Shown here: piece after piece, positions 7,346-55,422 of the stretch | Numbering within the stretch: position 1 is the first letter of the stretch | How the letters are laid out: each line of letters begins with the position of its first letter | Assembly (NCBI GenBank): GCA_964479595.1 | Contig: CAYZMU010000005.1 | Location: 5,298 to 60,769, forward strand | Length of the DNA: 55,472 bases | DNA from: an uncultured Ruminococcus sp. | GTDB taxonomy: Bacteria > Bacillota > Clostridia > Oscillospirales > Ruminococcaceae | Direction of reading: 5' to 3' | Notes under the pieces: model-generated | Told to the model about the DNA's origin: nothing | The model's input: only the letters and a program-made list of their open reading frames with translations | Database searches by the model: none | Translations under genes and position numbers: made by a program

Positions 7346-7349
7346 TCCG

Positions 7350-7423
7350 TGCGCCAGAAGGGACTCGAACCCCCGACCTACTGGTTCGTAGCCAGTCACT
7401 CTATCCAGCTGAGCTACTGGCGC
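7350..7423 (-). tRNA. tRNA-Arg (anticodon ACG)
   Basis: Reverse complement GCGCCAGTAGCTCAGCTGGATAGAGTGACTGGCTACGAACCAGTAGGTCGGGGGTTCGAGTCCCTTCTGGCGCA. It has a 7-bp acceptor stem, a D arm GCTC/GAGT, an anticodon stem ACTGG/CCAGT with loop CTACGAA, and a T loop TTCGAGT. CCA is not encoded. Confidence 0.9.
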
Positions 7424-7656: not shown

Positions 7657-8745
7657 ATGAAAATCACCAGATTCCTTTCAGCGGCCGCCGTGCCGATTGT
7701 CTGCATGGGGGTTTGTGTGCTGACGGGCTGCCTGCTGCAGGACATTCCCGACGCGCAGAGCCGCCCCGACGAAAGTTCCCAAAGTCAGGCGGTAGGGGAG
7801 GTGCCCGAATCCCCGGAGTCCTCTCTCGCCGATTCGGTTCCTGACGACCCCGAACGCGCGGACGCCATGAAGCAGGCGCTCAGACAGAATGTCATGCACA
7901 TCAACAACGGACTGCTTCTCAACAATGTTCCGCATTTCTACCAGCGCGGGGACTACGCCACCGCCTGCGAAAGCTACGCCGCGGTCGCGGTGCTGCGGTA
8001 TTTCGGCTACGATATCAGCCCGGAGGAGTTCATTGAGGAGCATCTGCCCGTGGCGGATTATCCCGCCGCGAATGATAAGGGCGTCCTGACGGGGGAGAGT
8101 CCGTGGGAATACTTTATCGGCGACCCGCTGGAGAAAAGCGCCTACGGCTGCTACAGCCCGGTCATCGCGCGCGCCGTCAACGATATGCTGCCGGACGCCG
8201 CGCGGGATGTGCGCGATCTCTCGCTCGACACGCTCTGCGACGAATACGTCGCGCAGGGATACCCGGTCGTCATCTGGACGACGATTGCCATGCTGCCCGC
8301 GGAGAACGGCAACCAGTGGACACTGCCCAACGGGGAGACGTTTATCTTCTTAAAGCCCGAGCACGCGCTGGTGCTGATAGGCTATGACGACAGCTATTAC
8401 TACTTCAGCGACTCGCTGGTGAATTCCGACGTGGTCAAGTACGACAGAATCGCCGTGGAAAAGGCGTATCAGTCCATGTACGCGCAGGCGGTTGTCATCG
8501 CGCCGAGCGCGCCGGGGGAGATGAATATCCAGACAGGCACGCAGATGCCCGGCATCGGAACCGTGACCACAACCACCACGACCACCACGACAACAACCAC
8601 GACGACCACGACCACCACAACCGCGACATCGACCTCCACGACCACGGCACGGCCATGGACGTCGAGCACCACCACGACATGGCACGCCCAGACCTCGACC
8701 ACAACCGCGGCGCCCGCGTGGCACGGAGCGTGGCAGGGCGCGTGA
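7657..8745 (+). CDS. secreted lipoprotein with C39-like (Peptidase_C39_2 type) cysteine peptidase domain and C-terminal poly-Thr tail
   Basis: Lipobox [25 protein letters not shown]. Candidate catalytic Cys in [19 protein letters not shown] and His in [11 protein letters not shown]. C-terminal run of 21 consecutive Thr. An alternative, possibly leaderless start is ATG 7627. Confidence 0.7.
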   Translation: [362 protein letters not shown]

Positions 8746-51896: not shown

Positions 51897-53582
51897 TCAG
51901 ATGTTTTTCTGTCCCGCGCCGCGCGCGAGCAGCATATTGTTGACGGCGCTGATGAGCGCCTTGATGGAGGACGTGACCGTGTCGGTGTCCGTCCCCGCGC
52001 CCCAGAAGCTCTCCCCGGAATCGGAGAGAATCTGCACATACGAGACCGCCGCGGAAGTCGAGCCGTTCTCCAGCGCGTGCGCGGTGTAGTCCTCGATGTT
52101 GTAGCTGACGTTCAGACAGGAGCGAATCGCGTTGGAAACCGCGTCCAGACGCCCGTTTCCGGAATCCGTCGCCCCGATGGCCGCGCCGTCCATGGAGACC
52201 TCAATCTTCGCCTCAATGCCGTTTCGCTGCGCGTAGTGCGCCGAAATCAGGTTGAGCGGCGCGGTGATGTTTAAGTAGTTGTCCTTGAAAATCCCGTAAA
52301 TCTCCTCGGGCATCATTTCCTTGTGCTCGCGGTCGGAGACGCCCTTGACCAGATACCCGAAATGCTCCCGCATCTTCGGCGGCAGCTTGAAGCCGAAGCG
52401 CGATTCGAGAATGTAGCCGATGCCGCCCTTTCCCGACTGGCTGTTGACGCGGATGACGTCCTTCTCGTAGACGCGTCCCACGTCCGTGGGGTCCAGCGGC
52501 AGATAGGGCACGGTCCAGTGCGGGGTGTTTTTCTCCTCGCGCCATTTCATACCCTTGGTAATCGCGTCCTGGTGCGAGCCGCTGAACGCCGTAAAGACCA
52601 ATTTGCCGCTGTAGGGCTGGCGGTCGTCCACGGTCATTCTCGTCAGGCGCGTGTAGAGTTCGGTGATGGCGGGAATATTGCTGAAATCCAGCCCCGGGTC
52701 CACGCCCTGGGTGTACATATTCAGCGCCAGCGTGATGATATCCACGTTCCCCGTGCGCTCGCCGTTTCCAAAAAGCGTGCCCTCGACTCTGTCCGCCCCC
52801 GCGAGCAGCCCCATCTCGGTGTCCGCGACGGCACAGCCGCGGTCGTTGTGCGGGTGCAGCGAGACGATGACGTTTTCGCGGTCCTTCAAGTTGTCGCACA
52901 TATACTCTATCTGGTTGGCGTAGACATGCGGCATGGAGAGCTCCACCGTGACGGGCAGGTTGATGATGACCTTGTCGTCGGCGCTCGGTTCCCAGACGTC
53001 TAAAACGGCGTTGCAGATTTCCAGCGCGAACGGCGGCTCGGTGCCCGTGAAGCTTTCCGGGGAATACTCAAAGCGGAAGTTGCCCTTGCTCTTTTCGCGG
53101 TATTCGCGGCAGAGTTTCGCGCCCGAGACCGCGATGCCGATAATCTCCTCGGGGCTCTTGCGGAAGACCTGCTCGCGCTGCGCCAGCGAGGTGGAGTTGT
53201 AGAGGTGGACAATCGCGTTCTCACAGCCCTGAATCGCCTCGAAAGTCCGTCTGATGATGTGTTCGCGCGACTGTGTCAGCACCTGAATTGTCACGTCCGG
53301 CGGAATCAGCCCGCGTTCAATCAGCGCGCGGCAGAATTCGTATTCCGTTTCCGACGCCGCGGGGAAGCCAATCTCGATTTCCTTGAACCCCAGCGCGACG
53401 AGTTCCGCGAAGAACTCCAGTTTCTCGTCCAGACTCATCGGCGTAATCAGCGCCTGATTGCCGTCGCGCAAATCCACGCTGCACCAGATGGGCGGCTTTT
53501 CAATCATGGATTTCTGCGCCCAGCGCATCGGCGTCGGCGGGGCCTCAAAGAATTGTTTGGTGTACTTCTGAGCGTTTTTCAT
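51897..53582 (-). CDS. leuA: 2-isopropylmalate synthase (long ~560 aa type)
   Basis: WCSVDLRDGNQAL and HPHNDRGCAVA. ATG 53582 has a GGAGGAAATGAA RBS context. The ORF-track start 53705 runs into the T-box leader. Confidence 0.93.
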   Translation of the reverse strand: MKNAQKYTKQFFEAPPTPMRWAQKSMIEKPPIWCSVDLRDGNQALITPMSLDEKLEFFAELVALGFKEIEIGFPAASETEYEFCRALIERGLIPPDVTIQVLTQSREHIIRRTFEAIQGCENAIVHLYNSTSLAQREQVFRKSPEEIIGIAVSGAKLCREYREKSKGNFRFEYSPESFTGTEPPFALEICNAVLDVWEPSADDKVIINLPVTVELSMPHVYANQIEYMCDNLKDRENVIVSLHPHNDRGCAVADTEMGLLAGADRVEGTLFGNGERTGNVDIITLALNMYTQGVDPGLDFSNIPAITELYTRLTRMTVDDRQPYSGKLVFTAFSGSHQDAITKGMKWREEKNTPHWTVPYLPLDPTDVGRVYEKDVIRVNSQSGKGGIGYILESRFGFKLPPKMREHFGYLVKGVSDREHKEMMPEEIYGIFKDNYLNITAPLNLISAHYAQRNGIEAKIEVSMDGAAIGATDSGNGRLDAVSNAIRSCLNVSYNIEDYTAHALENGSTSAAVSYVQILSDSGESFWGAGTDTDTVTSSIKALISAVNNMLLARGAGQKNI

Positions 53583-53599
53583 TTCATTTCCTCCTTGGT

Positions 53600-54147
53600 G
53601 GGCATCAGCTGCCCGGGCATTGGAGAGCAATAAAAAAATCCCCCCCCAAGAAACCGGAAAGAGACGAAGATTATCAAAACTCCGCGGTACCACTCTTCTT
53701 GGCACAGATGTGCCCCCTCAGCGGGTGCTCACAACACCCTTCTCTGTCACGGGAGAACCCGTCGCGAACTAATCCGATACCGGAACCGGCGTACCCGGGT
53801 CACGCACCGCGCCCCATCAAGCACCGCGCCCCATCAAGCACCGCGCCCCATCAGCCGCCGCGCCCCATCAGCCGCCGCGCCCCATCAGGACACCATACCC
53901 GTCAGCCACCGTACCCAACCGGACACCGCGCCCAATCAGCCGCCGCGCCCGTCAGTCACCGTACCCAATCGCGCACCGCGCCCAACCAAGCACCGCACCC
54001 TTGCGCCCTTGTGTGGCACACCCGGAATCGTTTCGCCCGCGCCGCTCGGGGAGGAGTTATCAGGCCGGGGCGGCTGCTGCCTTTCAGCAAACGGCAGCTC
54101 TCTGAAAACCGCGCACACGGCTCTTTGTTCCCTTCATGGCGTTTATC
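53600..54147 (-). promoter_or_regulatory. T-box leader (tRNA-sensing riboswitch, probable Leu specificity) of the leuA-ilv-leu operon
   Basis: Minus-strand RNA. Stem I-like part: AG bay CAGAGAG (54104-54098), distal loop GCUGAAAGG, and candidate specifier region UGAUAACUCCUC (CUC = Leu; 54056-54051). Stem III hairpin GGCAC-AUCU-GUGCC. T-box motif AGAGUGGUACCGCGG (53696-53682). Antiterminator pairing GAAGAG/CUCUUU and GCGGAG/CUUCGU. Downstream G8 then U7 (53647-53632). The specifier assignment is tentative. Confidence 0.75.
53804..54008. repeat. tandem array of about 12 imperfect 16-19 bp units (plus-strand unit gcaccgcgccccatcaa)
   Basis: Read directly. 53804-53820 and 53821-53837 are identical. 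53838-53853 is the same unit minus 1 nt. 53854-53870 and 53871-53887 are identical (gccgccgcgccccatca). Seven progressively diverged units follow, up to about 54008. Confidence 0.9.
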
Positions 54148-54153
54148 CCTTTA

Positions 54154-54182
54154 AGTATACAATAAAATTTGGGGTTTGTCAA
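54154..54182 (-). promoter_or_regulatory. sigma-A type promoter of the T-box/leuA operon
   Basis: On the minus strand: TTGACA (54182-54177), 17 nt spacer, TATACT (54159-54154). Confidence 0.65.
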
Positions 54183-54231
54183 GGGTTTTTGGAAAAGTTT
54201 TCGCGGAGAGGGAGGGAAATTTTCGCGCCGC

Positions 54232-54260
54232 TTGCAAATTTCAAAGGAATGTGCTATACT
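54232..54260 (+). promoter_or_regulatory. sigma-A type promoter of nspC
   Basis: TTGCAA (54232-54237), 17 nt spacer, TATACT (54255-54260). Confidence 0.5.
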
Positions 54261-54300
54261 GTAGTTGTGTTATTTTGTCTTTTGGGAAGGAGTGCCGTTT

Positions 54301-55422
54301 ATGCTCGAATCCGAACTGCCCTCGCCGTGCTATCTGATAGACCAGACCGCGCTGAGAAAGAACCTCATTGTACTGGATACCCTGCGCGAGTCCTGCGGCT
54401 GCAAAATTCTTTTCGCGCAGAAGGCGTTCTCCTCGTTTCCGTTCTATTCCATGATTTCGCGCTTTCTGGACGGCGCGTCCTCGTGCTCGACTTATGAGGC
54501 GCAGCTGGCGCATCTCTATTTTCACGGCGAGAACCACGTCTTTCAGACCGCCTATCTGCCCGGGGAAATCGAAACCTTGCTGCCCATCTGCGACCACATG
54601 GTCTTTAATTCCCCGCTGCAGCTCAAGGCTTACGGAGCGCTGGCGCGGGACAAGGGCGTTTCCGTGGGGCTGCGCGTCAATCCCGAGTGCCTCTCCCAGC
54701 AGCTTGATGAATTTGACCCCTGCGCGCCCTGTTCGCGCCTCGGCACGACCGTCCTGCAGTTCCCCGCAGAGCTGCGCGGGCTGATACAGGGGCTTCATGT
54801 CCACGCGCTCTACGAACAGAACGCCGACGCGCTGGAGTACCTGCTCGACGCGATGATTGACAAATTCGGCACGCTGCTGCCGCAGATGGAGTGGGTGAAT
54901 TTAGGCGGCGGCCACCACATCACCCGCGAGGGCTATCAGACGGAGCGTCTTGAGGCGTGCGTGCGGCTTCTGCGCGAAAAATACGGCCTCACCGTCTATT
55001 TTGAGCCCGGCGAGGCGATTGTCTGGGAGGCGGGGTATTTCATCACCACGGTCGTGGATCTGATAGACAACGGCATGCCCATCGCCGTGCTCGATTCCTC
55101 CGCCGTCTGCCACGCCTCTGACATCACGGAACTGCAGTACCGTCCGCCGCTTGAGGGCGCGGACAAGCCTTCCGTGCTGGCCCATACTTATCGTCTCGCG
55201 GGGCGCAGCCCTCTGCCGGAGGATATCTTCGGGGACTACTCTTTCGACCACAAGCTCGAAATCGGCGAGCGGCTGGTCTTCCGCGATATGGCGATCAACA
55301 CCCTCACCAAGGCGAGAATGTACACCGGAATGCCCATGCCCTGCGTCGCCGTGCGCGAATCCGACGGCAGCTGCCGCGTCCTGCGCACCTTCACCTTCGC
55401 CGATTACAAATCCCGTTTTTGA
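54301..55422 (+). CDS. nspC: carboxynorspermidine/carboxyspermidine decarboxylase
   Basis: 373 aa from ATG 54301 (GGGAAGGAG RBS). PSPCYLIDQTALRKNL, ILFAQKAFS, VNLGGGHH and a C-terminal beta-barrel region, typical of the NspC/CANSDC family. Confidence 0.85.
   Translation: MLESELPSPCYLIDQTALRKNLIVLDTLRESCGCKILFAQKAFSSFPFYSMISRFLDGASSCSTYEAQLAHLYFHGENHVFQTAYLPGEIETLLPICDHMVFNSPLQLKAYGALARDKGVSVGLRVNPECLSQQLDEFDPCAPCSRLGTTVLQFPAELRGLIQGLHVHALYEQNADALEYLLDAMIDKFGTLLPQMEWVNLGGGHHITREGYQTERLEACVRLLREKYGLTVYFEPGEAIVWEAGYFITTVVDLIDNGMPIAVLDSSAVCHASDITELQYRPPLEGADKPSVLAHTYRLAGRSPLPEDIFGDYSFDHKLEIGERLVFRDMAINTLTKARMYTGMPMPCVAVRESDGSCRVLRTFTFADYKSRF

Follow-up and report, generated by a model that had tools for sequence, protein, structure and literature searches.

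How does a riboswitch in which two distant elements must contact the same tRNA cope with some 200 nt of tandem repeats in its midst? This question is raised by the leader of leuA in an uncultured Ruminococcus sp., which lies on a 55,472-nt stretch of contig CAYZMU010000005.1 that was analysed in full (the window). A prediction made from the letters alone had placed about twelve tandem G-rich units in the leader of a leucine T-box, downstream of Stem I and upstream of the antiterminator. Our analyses recovered both the T-box and the array, and located the latter at the tip of Stem II. We regard it as probable that the array is a hypervariable 17-nt minisatellite tolerated in the Stem II apical loop of an intact leucine (CUC) T-box, where it possibly tunes the timing of the regulatory decision.

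The leucine T-box leader and its repeat array

The T-box model RF00230 gave no match in the window at the Rfam gathering threshold (93 bits). A focused RF00230 search of the minus strand returned two half-matches, one at 54146-54026 that represents Stem I (39.6 bits, E=4e-7) and another at 53820-53657 (31.8 bits, E=4e-5), which covered the 3′ half of Stem II, the IIA/B element, Stem III, the T-box sequence and the terminator stem. The array occupied the gap between them. Within the first half-match, Infernal aligned 54146-54044 to positions 1-103 of the model with high posterior probability. In L001, the only other complete allele of this locus that was recovered, the leader was found as a single match of 47.6 bits, also below the gathering score of 93. 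Its single spanning Infernal alignment put a 267-nt insertion inside the Stem II hairpin, beyond CGCGGGC (the 5′ strand) and the conserved GAA and before GUUCGCG (the 3′ strand), and it is the penalty for this 267-nt insertion that keeps the T-box below the Rfam gathering score. The parts of the leader and of the operon were located as follows, in window coordinates:

54154-54182, minus strand: sigma-70-type promoter TTGACA-17-TATACT, predicted by a scan with 11 of 12 matches
54044-54140, minus strand: T-box Stem I, from the Infernal alignment and homologous to Stem I of L002
54022-54043, minus strand: Stem II 5′ strand, from Infernal and the minimum free energy (MFE) fold, invariant in 8 assemblies
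54008-54021, minus strand: unvarying 5′ portion of the Stem II apex, GUGUGCCACACAAG, where agreement among all alleles ends
53785-54007, minus strand: hypervariable tandem array, ~12 units of 16-18 nt plus degenerate edge units
53763-53784, minus strand: Stem II 3′ strand, from Infernal, folding and the L002 alignment
53749-53762, minus strand: Stem IIA/B hairpin ACGGGUUCUCCCGU, the pseudoknot element, from Infernal
53701-53716, minus strand: Stem III, GGGGCACAUCUGUGCC, from Infernal; it folds
53658-53698, minus strand: antiterminator, from Infernal, with the canonical A1/bulge/A2 fold (-9.1 kcal/mol)
53632-53665, minus strand: intrinsic terminator GUCUCUUUCC-loop-GGGGGGGGAU followed by U7, from a terminator-like site of the scan at 53665-53638 and from the fold
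51897-53582, minus strand: leuA (2-isopropylmalate synthase, 561 aa), the putatively regulated gene, with Pfam HMGL-like/IPMS_D2/LeuA_dimer on its homologues
50147 to ~51890, minus strand: ilvB, downstream of leuA; same gene order, with Pfam domains, in L002
49622-50134, minus strand: ilvN, downstream of ilvB; same gene order, with Pfam domains, in L002

The position of the array was also addressed by folding and by comparison with L002, the nearest distinct relative (LeuA 81% identical). When the segment from Stem I to IIA/B was folded with RNAfold, the same base and upper helices closed in the window and in L001, and the resulting architecture of base helix, internal loop and upper helix (CGAU-U-CCGG / CCGG-U-AUCG) was that of the 45-nt Stem II of L002, whose apical loop has 13 nt. 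Specifically, the 5′ strand comprised the base helix CGCGGGC, an internal-loop GAA of S-turn type and the upper helix CGAU-U-CCGG; the 3′ strand, which was identical in the window, L001 and L006, comprised the upper helix CCGG-U-AUCG, the internal-loop strand GAUUAGUU and the base CGCG. Pairwise alignment of the window and L002 leaders showed homology on both sides of a single large indel, located in Stem II. Stem II spans ~280 nt here versus 33-52 nt in compact orthologues, and the whole T-box element ~490 nt versus 240-283 nt. According to these models, the array enlarges the apical loop of Stem II, on the far side of the conserved internal loop, and is not a linker between Stem I and Stem II. 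The S-turn in the middle section has been described as the chief functional element of Stem II, where it touches the codon-anticodon duplex (PMC7583486). We infer that an apical insert folded upon itself would point away from the tRNA-binding core. The idea that the insert separates Stem I from the rest of the T-box was not sustained, as Infernal and folding put the array inside the Stem II loop, and the paradox of an insert between elements that share a tRNA largely vanishes because the array stands at the Stem II tip. MFE folds of the whole leader mispaired T-box elements with the array and were not used.

By every sequence and structure feature tested except the Rfam score, the leader is a T-box. 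Stem I carried the kink-turn (K-turn; AUGA...GAG) and the distal T-loop motifs AGAGA and UGAAA (present as AGAGAG and UGAAAG), and the specifier loop displayed the codon CUC (Leu) at 54056-54054. With this codon at the specifier position and the two RF00230 halves flanking the array, the location of the repeats within a leucine T-box leader was confirmed, and both Stem III and the T-box motif fell in the downstream half-match, so the array does lie upstream of them. The IIA/B hairpin ACGGGUUCUCCCGU was the same in L002 and widespread among orthologues, and the T-box sequence AGAGUGGUACCGCGG (53696-53682) was identical in L002. The 7-nt bulge of the antiterminator, UGGUACC, starts with UGGU, whose last base would pair with A73, which we take to be the usual discriminator of tRNA-Leu. 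The 5′ strand of the terminator doubles as the 3′ strand of the antiterminator, so that the two structures are mutually exclusive. The terminator was identical in all three strains covering 53632-53665. It contains a G8 run and 5 of its 10 pairs are G-U, whereas the L002 terminator is Watson-Crick paired.

The promoter had also been named in the original prediction. It was the sole promoter-like site on the minus strand within 53300-54600, and its hexamers were the same in L001. The predicted transcription start (~54147) falls right before the first position of the T-box model (54146), and the distance of ~565 nt given from the predicted start to the leuA ATG was correct. Infernal placed Stem I upstream of the array and no Stem I downstream of it, and the only promoter-like site of the scan was upstream of Stem I. 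Since Stem I and the promoter both precede the array, the sequence-based objection that the functional T-box, or its transcription, might begin beyond the repeats does not hold. Leader-peptide attenuation was rejected, the small open reading frames over Stem I being spurious. Taken together with the operon downstream, and as a part of the reading that we favour, the sequence features suggest that this T-box probably functions as a tRNA-Leu-responsive, transcription-attenuating switch of leuA-ilvBN. The single tRNA gene of the window was a tRNA-Arg(ACG) at 7349-7423 (minus strand), and no tRNA-Leu gene cognate to the CUC specifier was found in the window.

As for the array itself, Tandem Repeats Finder (TRF) described it as one array at 53800-54000 with a period of 17, 11.9 copies, 74% matches and a score of 155, the window's top-scoring tandem repeat with a period that is not a multiple of 3. 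The units read from the sequence matched the list of about twelve tandem G-rich units drawn up earlier. We counted 12 units in the window, a number that is approximate where identical units adjoin, and the five gene-proximal ones include two identical pairs, as had been noted. The units are arranged head to tail and abut without unique spacers, which agrees with the earlier statement that this is not a CRISPR array. Their RNA-sense consensus is (U)UGAUGGGGCGCGGYGC, composed of a GGG-YRY-GG-YG core and a (C/U)UGAU-type linker; unit length ranges from 15 to 18 nt and the cores contain GCGC, GUAC, GUGC, GUAU or GCAC. The 15-nt core TGATGGGGCGCGGYG was present in 5 exact copies and 2 more with 1-2 mismatches, all 7 within the array, and nothing closer than 2 mismatches was found outside the array in the 55-kb window. 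On the plus strand, the tract shows a GC skew of -0.46 at a GC content of 0.72, and the array RNA is consequently G-rich (~50% G). The limits proposed originally (53804-54008) were right in placing the array there but slightly too narrow, as the comparison of alleles delimited a variable tract of 223 nt at 54007-53785, whose 3′ boundary TGACCCGGGTACGCCGG looks native but turned out to be a diverged array unit. Elsewhere in the window, an ACC/ACG-rich tandem repeat at 8559-8645, probably coding sequence of low complexity, had periods that were all divisible by 3 (3, 9, 21 and 24).

Variation between strains and among relatives

Neither the LeuA of the window nor its identical NCBI copy P0124 led to a recorded contig when matched exactly, and alleles of the leader were reached via the proteins P0001 and P0123 and the neighbour P0125. 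They came from the window record and from eight Logan assemblies belonging to seven sequencing runs, the source runs being SRR14209494-96 and SRR34575285/86/89/90. Complete alleles were available for the window and L001 only, and those of L218, L219, L221 and L222 were 5′ partial. Units of the same family stood at this position in the window record and in 8 out of 8 Logan assemblies, one of which spans the entire array with unique units.

Between the two complete alleles, the genes differed by 1.5% (nspC), 1.0% (leuA) and 3.0% (ilvB), the upstream intergenic region by 1.7% and the Stem II apex by 24.3%. The leader core from promoter to ATG outside the apex, which includes promoter, Stem I, both Stem II strands, IIA/B, Stem III, antiterminator, terminator and ribosome-binding region, showed no differences in 368 nt. 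Applied to these 368 nt, the pooled gene rate of 1.7% predicts ~6.4 differences, and the Poisson probability of finding none is ~0.002. Because none of the 368 nt differed, compared with 1-3% in the genes, these alignments indicate that the functional parts of the riboswitch are under purifying selection. The arrays themselves had only two unit types and no 30-mer in common, and comprised 12 units in the window and 11 plus a diverged terminal unit in L001, counts that short-read collapse may have affected. Six alleles (window, L001, L218, L219, L221 and L222) all carried the invariant ...CGAUUCCGGGUGUGCCACACAAG and diverged from the very next base. The L223 and L224 contigs end inside the invariant flank GUGUGCCACACAAG, and in L006 the array unit that adjoins the Stem II 3′ strand was replaced in register. 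The few Stem I polymorphisms were at permissive positions (for example the x of UGxRA and an internal loop). Given the divergence of the apex and the six alleles, the variable tract put forward in the original prediction is strongly supported as hypervariability of sequence and unit content.

Several observations concern the course of this variation. The divergent neighbour at 54301-55422 (plus strand) encodes a carboxynorspermidine decarboxylase homologue whose protein was 100% identical in seven Logan contigs from seven runs, and the adjacent array was different in every sample. L006 (1-30) and L222, both from run SRR14209494, represent opposite ends of an array, have the 26-nt GGTGCGGTGTCTGATGGGGTGCGGCG in common and diverge after it; this reflects either a branch of the assembly graph, with the 26-mer occurring twice in one allele, or two alleles in the sample. 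Among the unit cores of the six alleles, of the form GGG-NN-CGG, the double transition from CG to TA (GGGTACGG) was much commoner than the single-step TG or CA. Such an excess could be due to the duplication of a doubly mutated unit, to methyl-cytosine deamination on both strands or to selection for the self-complementary GUAC. In L001, GCAC and GUGC cores were found in adjacent units. A mechanism of the diversity-generating retroelement (DGR) type was rejected because the variation is not adenine-specific.

The orthologous leaders were then compared using 80 leuA loci from GTDB species representatives, with 1-kb upstream regions, plus L002-L006. By its LeuA, the organism belongs with uncultured Ruminococcus-like Oscillospiraceae. 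In addition to L002, a large cloud of metagenome-assembled genomes (MAGs) carried LeuA proteins 69-78% identical to that of the window. L002 has a compact T-box of 259 nt without repeats, which scored 98.5 bits, above the Rfam threshold. Among the 80 orthologues, the 12 scored with Rfam also had compact T-boxes of 240-283 nt (89-120 bits), a span that holds for these and L002 together (n=13), and Stem II measured 33-52 nt in the orthologues in which both anchors were found. TRF detected no comparable leader array in the upstream regions of the 80 orthologous loci and L002-L006; of all regions compared, only the window and L001 contained one. To judge from this set of sequences, the array is species-specific and hypervariable. 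Six orthologues in which regular-expression anchors had suggested ~240-670-nt gaps between Stem I and IIA/B were discarded as mis-anchored, since Rfam shows compact T-boxes in them.

Some of these relatives presented features of their own. In L005 (positions 1-130; LeuA 78% identity), Stem II is ~100 nt long and non-repetitive, about twice the usual length, and the T-box sequence is divergent-looking, with no Rfam match in a contig that is cut inside Stem I. The length of its Stem II suggests that the apex may be a length-tolerant site in the clade. In L010, a Ruminococcus MAG, the T-box (801-1070) and the leuA ATG (1501) are ~430 nt apart, and the interval contains at ~1279-1336 2.2 copies of a 27-nt repeat, GGGGGCTCTGCCCCCTAAACCCCCATC, whose core GGGGGC...GCCCCC is palindromic; this repeat may be an inserted element similar to repetitive extragenic palindromic (REP) sequences. 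L019, L025, L043 and L073 bear the label of Alistipes or Prevotella MAGs, and their leuA is of the Ruminococcus type (70-77% identical), in L043 with a compact T-box leader upstream (90.1 bits); these are probably mis-binned or mislabelled MAGs. Finally, the conserved 3′ flank gave no match in a metagenome scan. A degenerate three-unit pattern produced at least 120 metagenome matches and 11 viral matches, which were dismissed as period-9/18 (probably coding) repeats or short unrelated GC-rich arrays; the array's unit was absent from these matches and none of them lay within an Rfam riboswitch.

Predicted fold and competing explanations

The sense apex (232 nt) had an MFE of -129.3 kcal/mol, corresponding to z=-5.69 against dinucleotide shuffles (0 out of 200 as good). 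It was predicted to form one long imperfect hairpin with 46 G-C, 31 G-U and 11 A-U pairs, in which 74% of the bases were paired. The antisense apex showed no excess stability (z=+1.84). When a stricter null was applied, in which tandem structure and divergence between units were kept and the unit columns were permuted, z values of -2.3 and -2.0 were obtained (5/300 and 6/300), which ranks the real unit in the best ~2%. Shuffling the order of the units had no effect on fold stability. For this reason, rod formation is, as far as these folds go, a property of the unit, and any allele should therefore be able to join the ends of the insert. The predicted rod pairs G-runs with U-rich linkers, unlike the notion that self-complementary tetramers (GCGC, GUAC, GUGC, GUAU) pair core to core. 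That notion was dropped as evidence, and with it the reading of GCAC beside GUGC in L001 as covariation.

The explanation that we favour, that of a minisatellite tolerated at the Stem II tip of an intact T-box, can be outlined as follows. Slippage during replication, unequal recombination or unit-to-unit conversion would create the array and drive its turnover, a process that its G-rich non-template strand downstream of a strong promoter may promote. The G/U-rich sense transcript would fold on itself into an imperfect rod of ~90 pairs in any order of units. By joining the ends of the insert, the rod would permit Stem II to close and to offer its internal loop to the codon-anticodon duplex. The array would thus be tolerated because it self-folds, is distal to the S-turn and sits on an apex directed away from the core that binds the tRNA. 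T-boxes work kinetically, as co-transcriptional switches. The likeliest functional consequence, if there is any, would be kinetic: with ~220 extra nt to be transcribed between Stem I and the decision between terminator and antiterminator, the window for tRNA capture would be longer. Overall, a tolerated and fast-evolving expansion is most likely, rather than a new regulatory device.

Several points weigh against this explanation. The T-box scores below the Rfam gathering score, and its membership depends on the two half-matches and on its homology with L002. By predicted energy, the terminator falls short of that of L002 (-12.9 vs -17.6 kcal/mol), so part of the regulation may have been lost. 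The two complete alleles are near-equal in length (237 and 242 nt), which could hint at a length constraint and, if real, would not be predicted by pure neutrality. All alleles but that of the window derive from short-read assemblies, in which collapse or mis-joins are possible, and 6 of the 8 Logan contigs break inside the array. The stricter null gave a z of only about -2, by which selection for self-pairing is at best suggested, and the details of MFE folds are not reliable for a G-rich RNA of 230 nt. The promoter and the start site, like the rod structure and the tRNA response, have the status of predictions.

A different view of the same data is that the array is an adaptive tuning or contingency element, kept since its length or stability sets the behaviour of the riboswitch. 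The array might act through the co-transcriptional time window, through RNA polymerase pausing on G-rich RNA or through the sensitivity of the duplex to RNase III, and its high mutability would create heritable variation between strains or cells in the set-point of the leucine/branched-chain operon. We consider this unlikely, though to be taken seriously, and its more specific form, in which slippage or recombination yields rod-forming apex alleles of differing length or stability that set the decision window or RNase III susceptibility, quite unlikely. Consistent with tuning, the array is hypervariable in every sample between frozen flanks, the two complete alleles are near-equal in length despite 24% sequence difference, and only ~2% of arrangements with the unit's composition reach its self-complementarity. 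The rod would in principle be long enough for RNase III, an enzyme that cleaves another T-box leader (PMC7913692), and mixed alleles within samples would fit with the breaks that most Logan contigs show in the array. However, related species keep the same operon under compact T-boxes, repeats longer than k would explain the contig breaks just as well, a length constraint can hardly be drawn from just two alleles, and the RNase III idea is pure analogy. Decay of the riboswitch, with attenuation disabled or weakened by the expansion and by the G-U-rich terminator, and a future pseudo-T-box as its outcome, is improbable. It would account for a T-box below the Rfam gathering score, for a terminator weaker than that of L002 (by the energies given above, with 5 G-U pairs) and for an insert that exceeds any we found described. 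Nevertheless, the insertion penalty fully explains the low Rfam score, every conserved motif is intact and matches its L002 counterpart exactly, no core leader substitution (0 of 368) separates strains with 1-3% gene divergence, and the Stem I polymorphisms of other strains are at permissive positions.

Two further proposals, both with a forerunner in the original prediction, lost ground when the array was analysed. About 12 regularly spaced units, each with UGA(U/C) and a G-rich core, could be imagined as a binding array for a multimeric RNA-binding protein in the manner of TRAP, or for a roadblock protein bound to DNA. But the unit is 17 nt long with a variable core and no (G/U)AG-N2-3 periodicity, its length varies from 15 to 18 nt and its order from strain to strain, the RNA is predicted to be mostly duplex whereas binding of the TRAP type requires triplets that are single-stranded and 2-3 nt apart, and the array was absent in all related species compared and its unit nowhere else in the window; we judge this proposal highly improbable. 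To a G-quadruplex tract, in RNA or in non-template DNA, acting as a structural switch or pause site, we assign a similarly slender chance. The RNA is 50% G, every unit has GGGG or GGG, the G-rich strand is the non-template one, and each allele contains four two-tetrad motifs and three G3 motifs with loops of 15 nt or less. Yet a regular-expression scan for canonical G3+ quadruplexes with loops of 1-7 nt found none in either complete allele, the G-tracts are ~13 nt apart, and the two-tetrad motifs would compete with a very stable predicted duplex, which leaves little of the GGGG-tract spacer suggested earlier. That the array is an assembly artefact is scarcely credible. Identical adjacent units are error-prone in short-read assembly, and 6 of 8 Logan contigs end in the array, but units of the same family occupied the same position in nine records, those of the window and of the eight Logan assemblies from seven runs, and one assembly covers the full array with unique units, by all of which its presence is effectively secured.

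Known systems and significance

The leader shares with canonical T-boxes (RF00230; the leuA leaders of L002 and of Ruminococcus flavefaciens L028) the leuA-ilvBN context, the CUC specifier, the Stem I motifs, IIA/B, Stem III, AGAGUGGUACCGCGG and the terminator; it differs from them in Stem II (~280 nt vs 33-52 nt) and total span (~490 nt vs 240-283 nt). Large inserts in T-boxes have been described. The metICFE-mdh (met leader) T-box of Staphylococcus aureus contains a 150-nt L I-III insertion between IIA/B and Stem III, for which its authors likewise proposed extended transcription time as a consequence (PMC7913692). It resembles our locus in having a large lineage-specific insert between Stem I and discriminator and an unusually long leader; here, in contrast, the insert lies in the Stem II apex and consists of a strain-variable 17-nt tandem array. 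The staphylococcal glyS T-box has a 42-nt insertion, stem Sa (PMC9177973), which is likewise a lineage-specific appended helix, but it belongs to the antiterminator/terminator domain, has been conserved among staphylococci and is needed for function, whereas the array described here is not sequence-conserved. More generally, T-boxes are said to have 'curious insertions' in each of their domains, of unknown structure and function, and Stem II is their most variable domain, with lineage-specific inserts whose function is unknown (PMC7583486). The statement that no T-box with such an insert was known thus needed correction as regards large inserts (150 and 42 nt), but it held for tandem repeats: our full-text literature search, which is not proof of absence, found no description of a tandem-repeat or strain-hypervariable T-box or other riboswitch.

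Outside the T-box family, the array resembles bacterial minisatellites, or variable-number tandem repeats (VNTRs), and contingency loci in its short head-to-tail units, extreme strain polymorphism and conserved flanks, and its identical neighbouring copies indicate recent duplication, as in VNTRs. Classical contingency repeats act by shifting coding frames or by changing promoter spacing, whereas this array is embedded in a structured riboswitch domain. By analogy, the expansion segments of rRNA and RNase P also add a helix to the tip of a peripheral hairpin and leave the core undisturbed; these segments are usually stable within a species, while the array turns over between strains. In the trp leader of Bacillus, TRAP binds 9-11 (G/U)AG triplets that are 2-3 nt apart in single-stranded RNA. 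The number of repeated elements (about 11-12) and their location in an amino-acid biosynthesis leader are comparable here, but the period is 17 nt, the core is variable and the RNA is predicted to be duplex.

This locus has a practical implication, in that an insert drops a genuine T-box under the Rfam gathering score, and standard pipelines consequently miss expanded riboswitches. The roles of lineage-specific T-box inserts and of Stem II diversity have been listed among the open questions of the field (PMC7583486). In this respect the locus constitutes a natural experiment, with a Stem II apex that is ~six-fold expanded and variable between strains, tRNA-contacting elements that are fixed and a near relative that is compact. 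If its alleles behave alike, they would show how much peripheral RNA a T-box tolerates and would define a safe insertion site for engineering. If they behave differently, this would be the first case known to us of a hypervariable repeat tuning a riboswitch. Were the array a tuning knob, populations would carry heritable variation in the set-point of their branched-chain amino-acid operon, and the array would represent a contingency locus that works through RNA structure and timing rather than through reading frame or promoter spacing.

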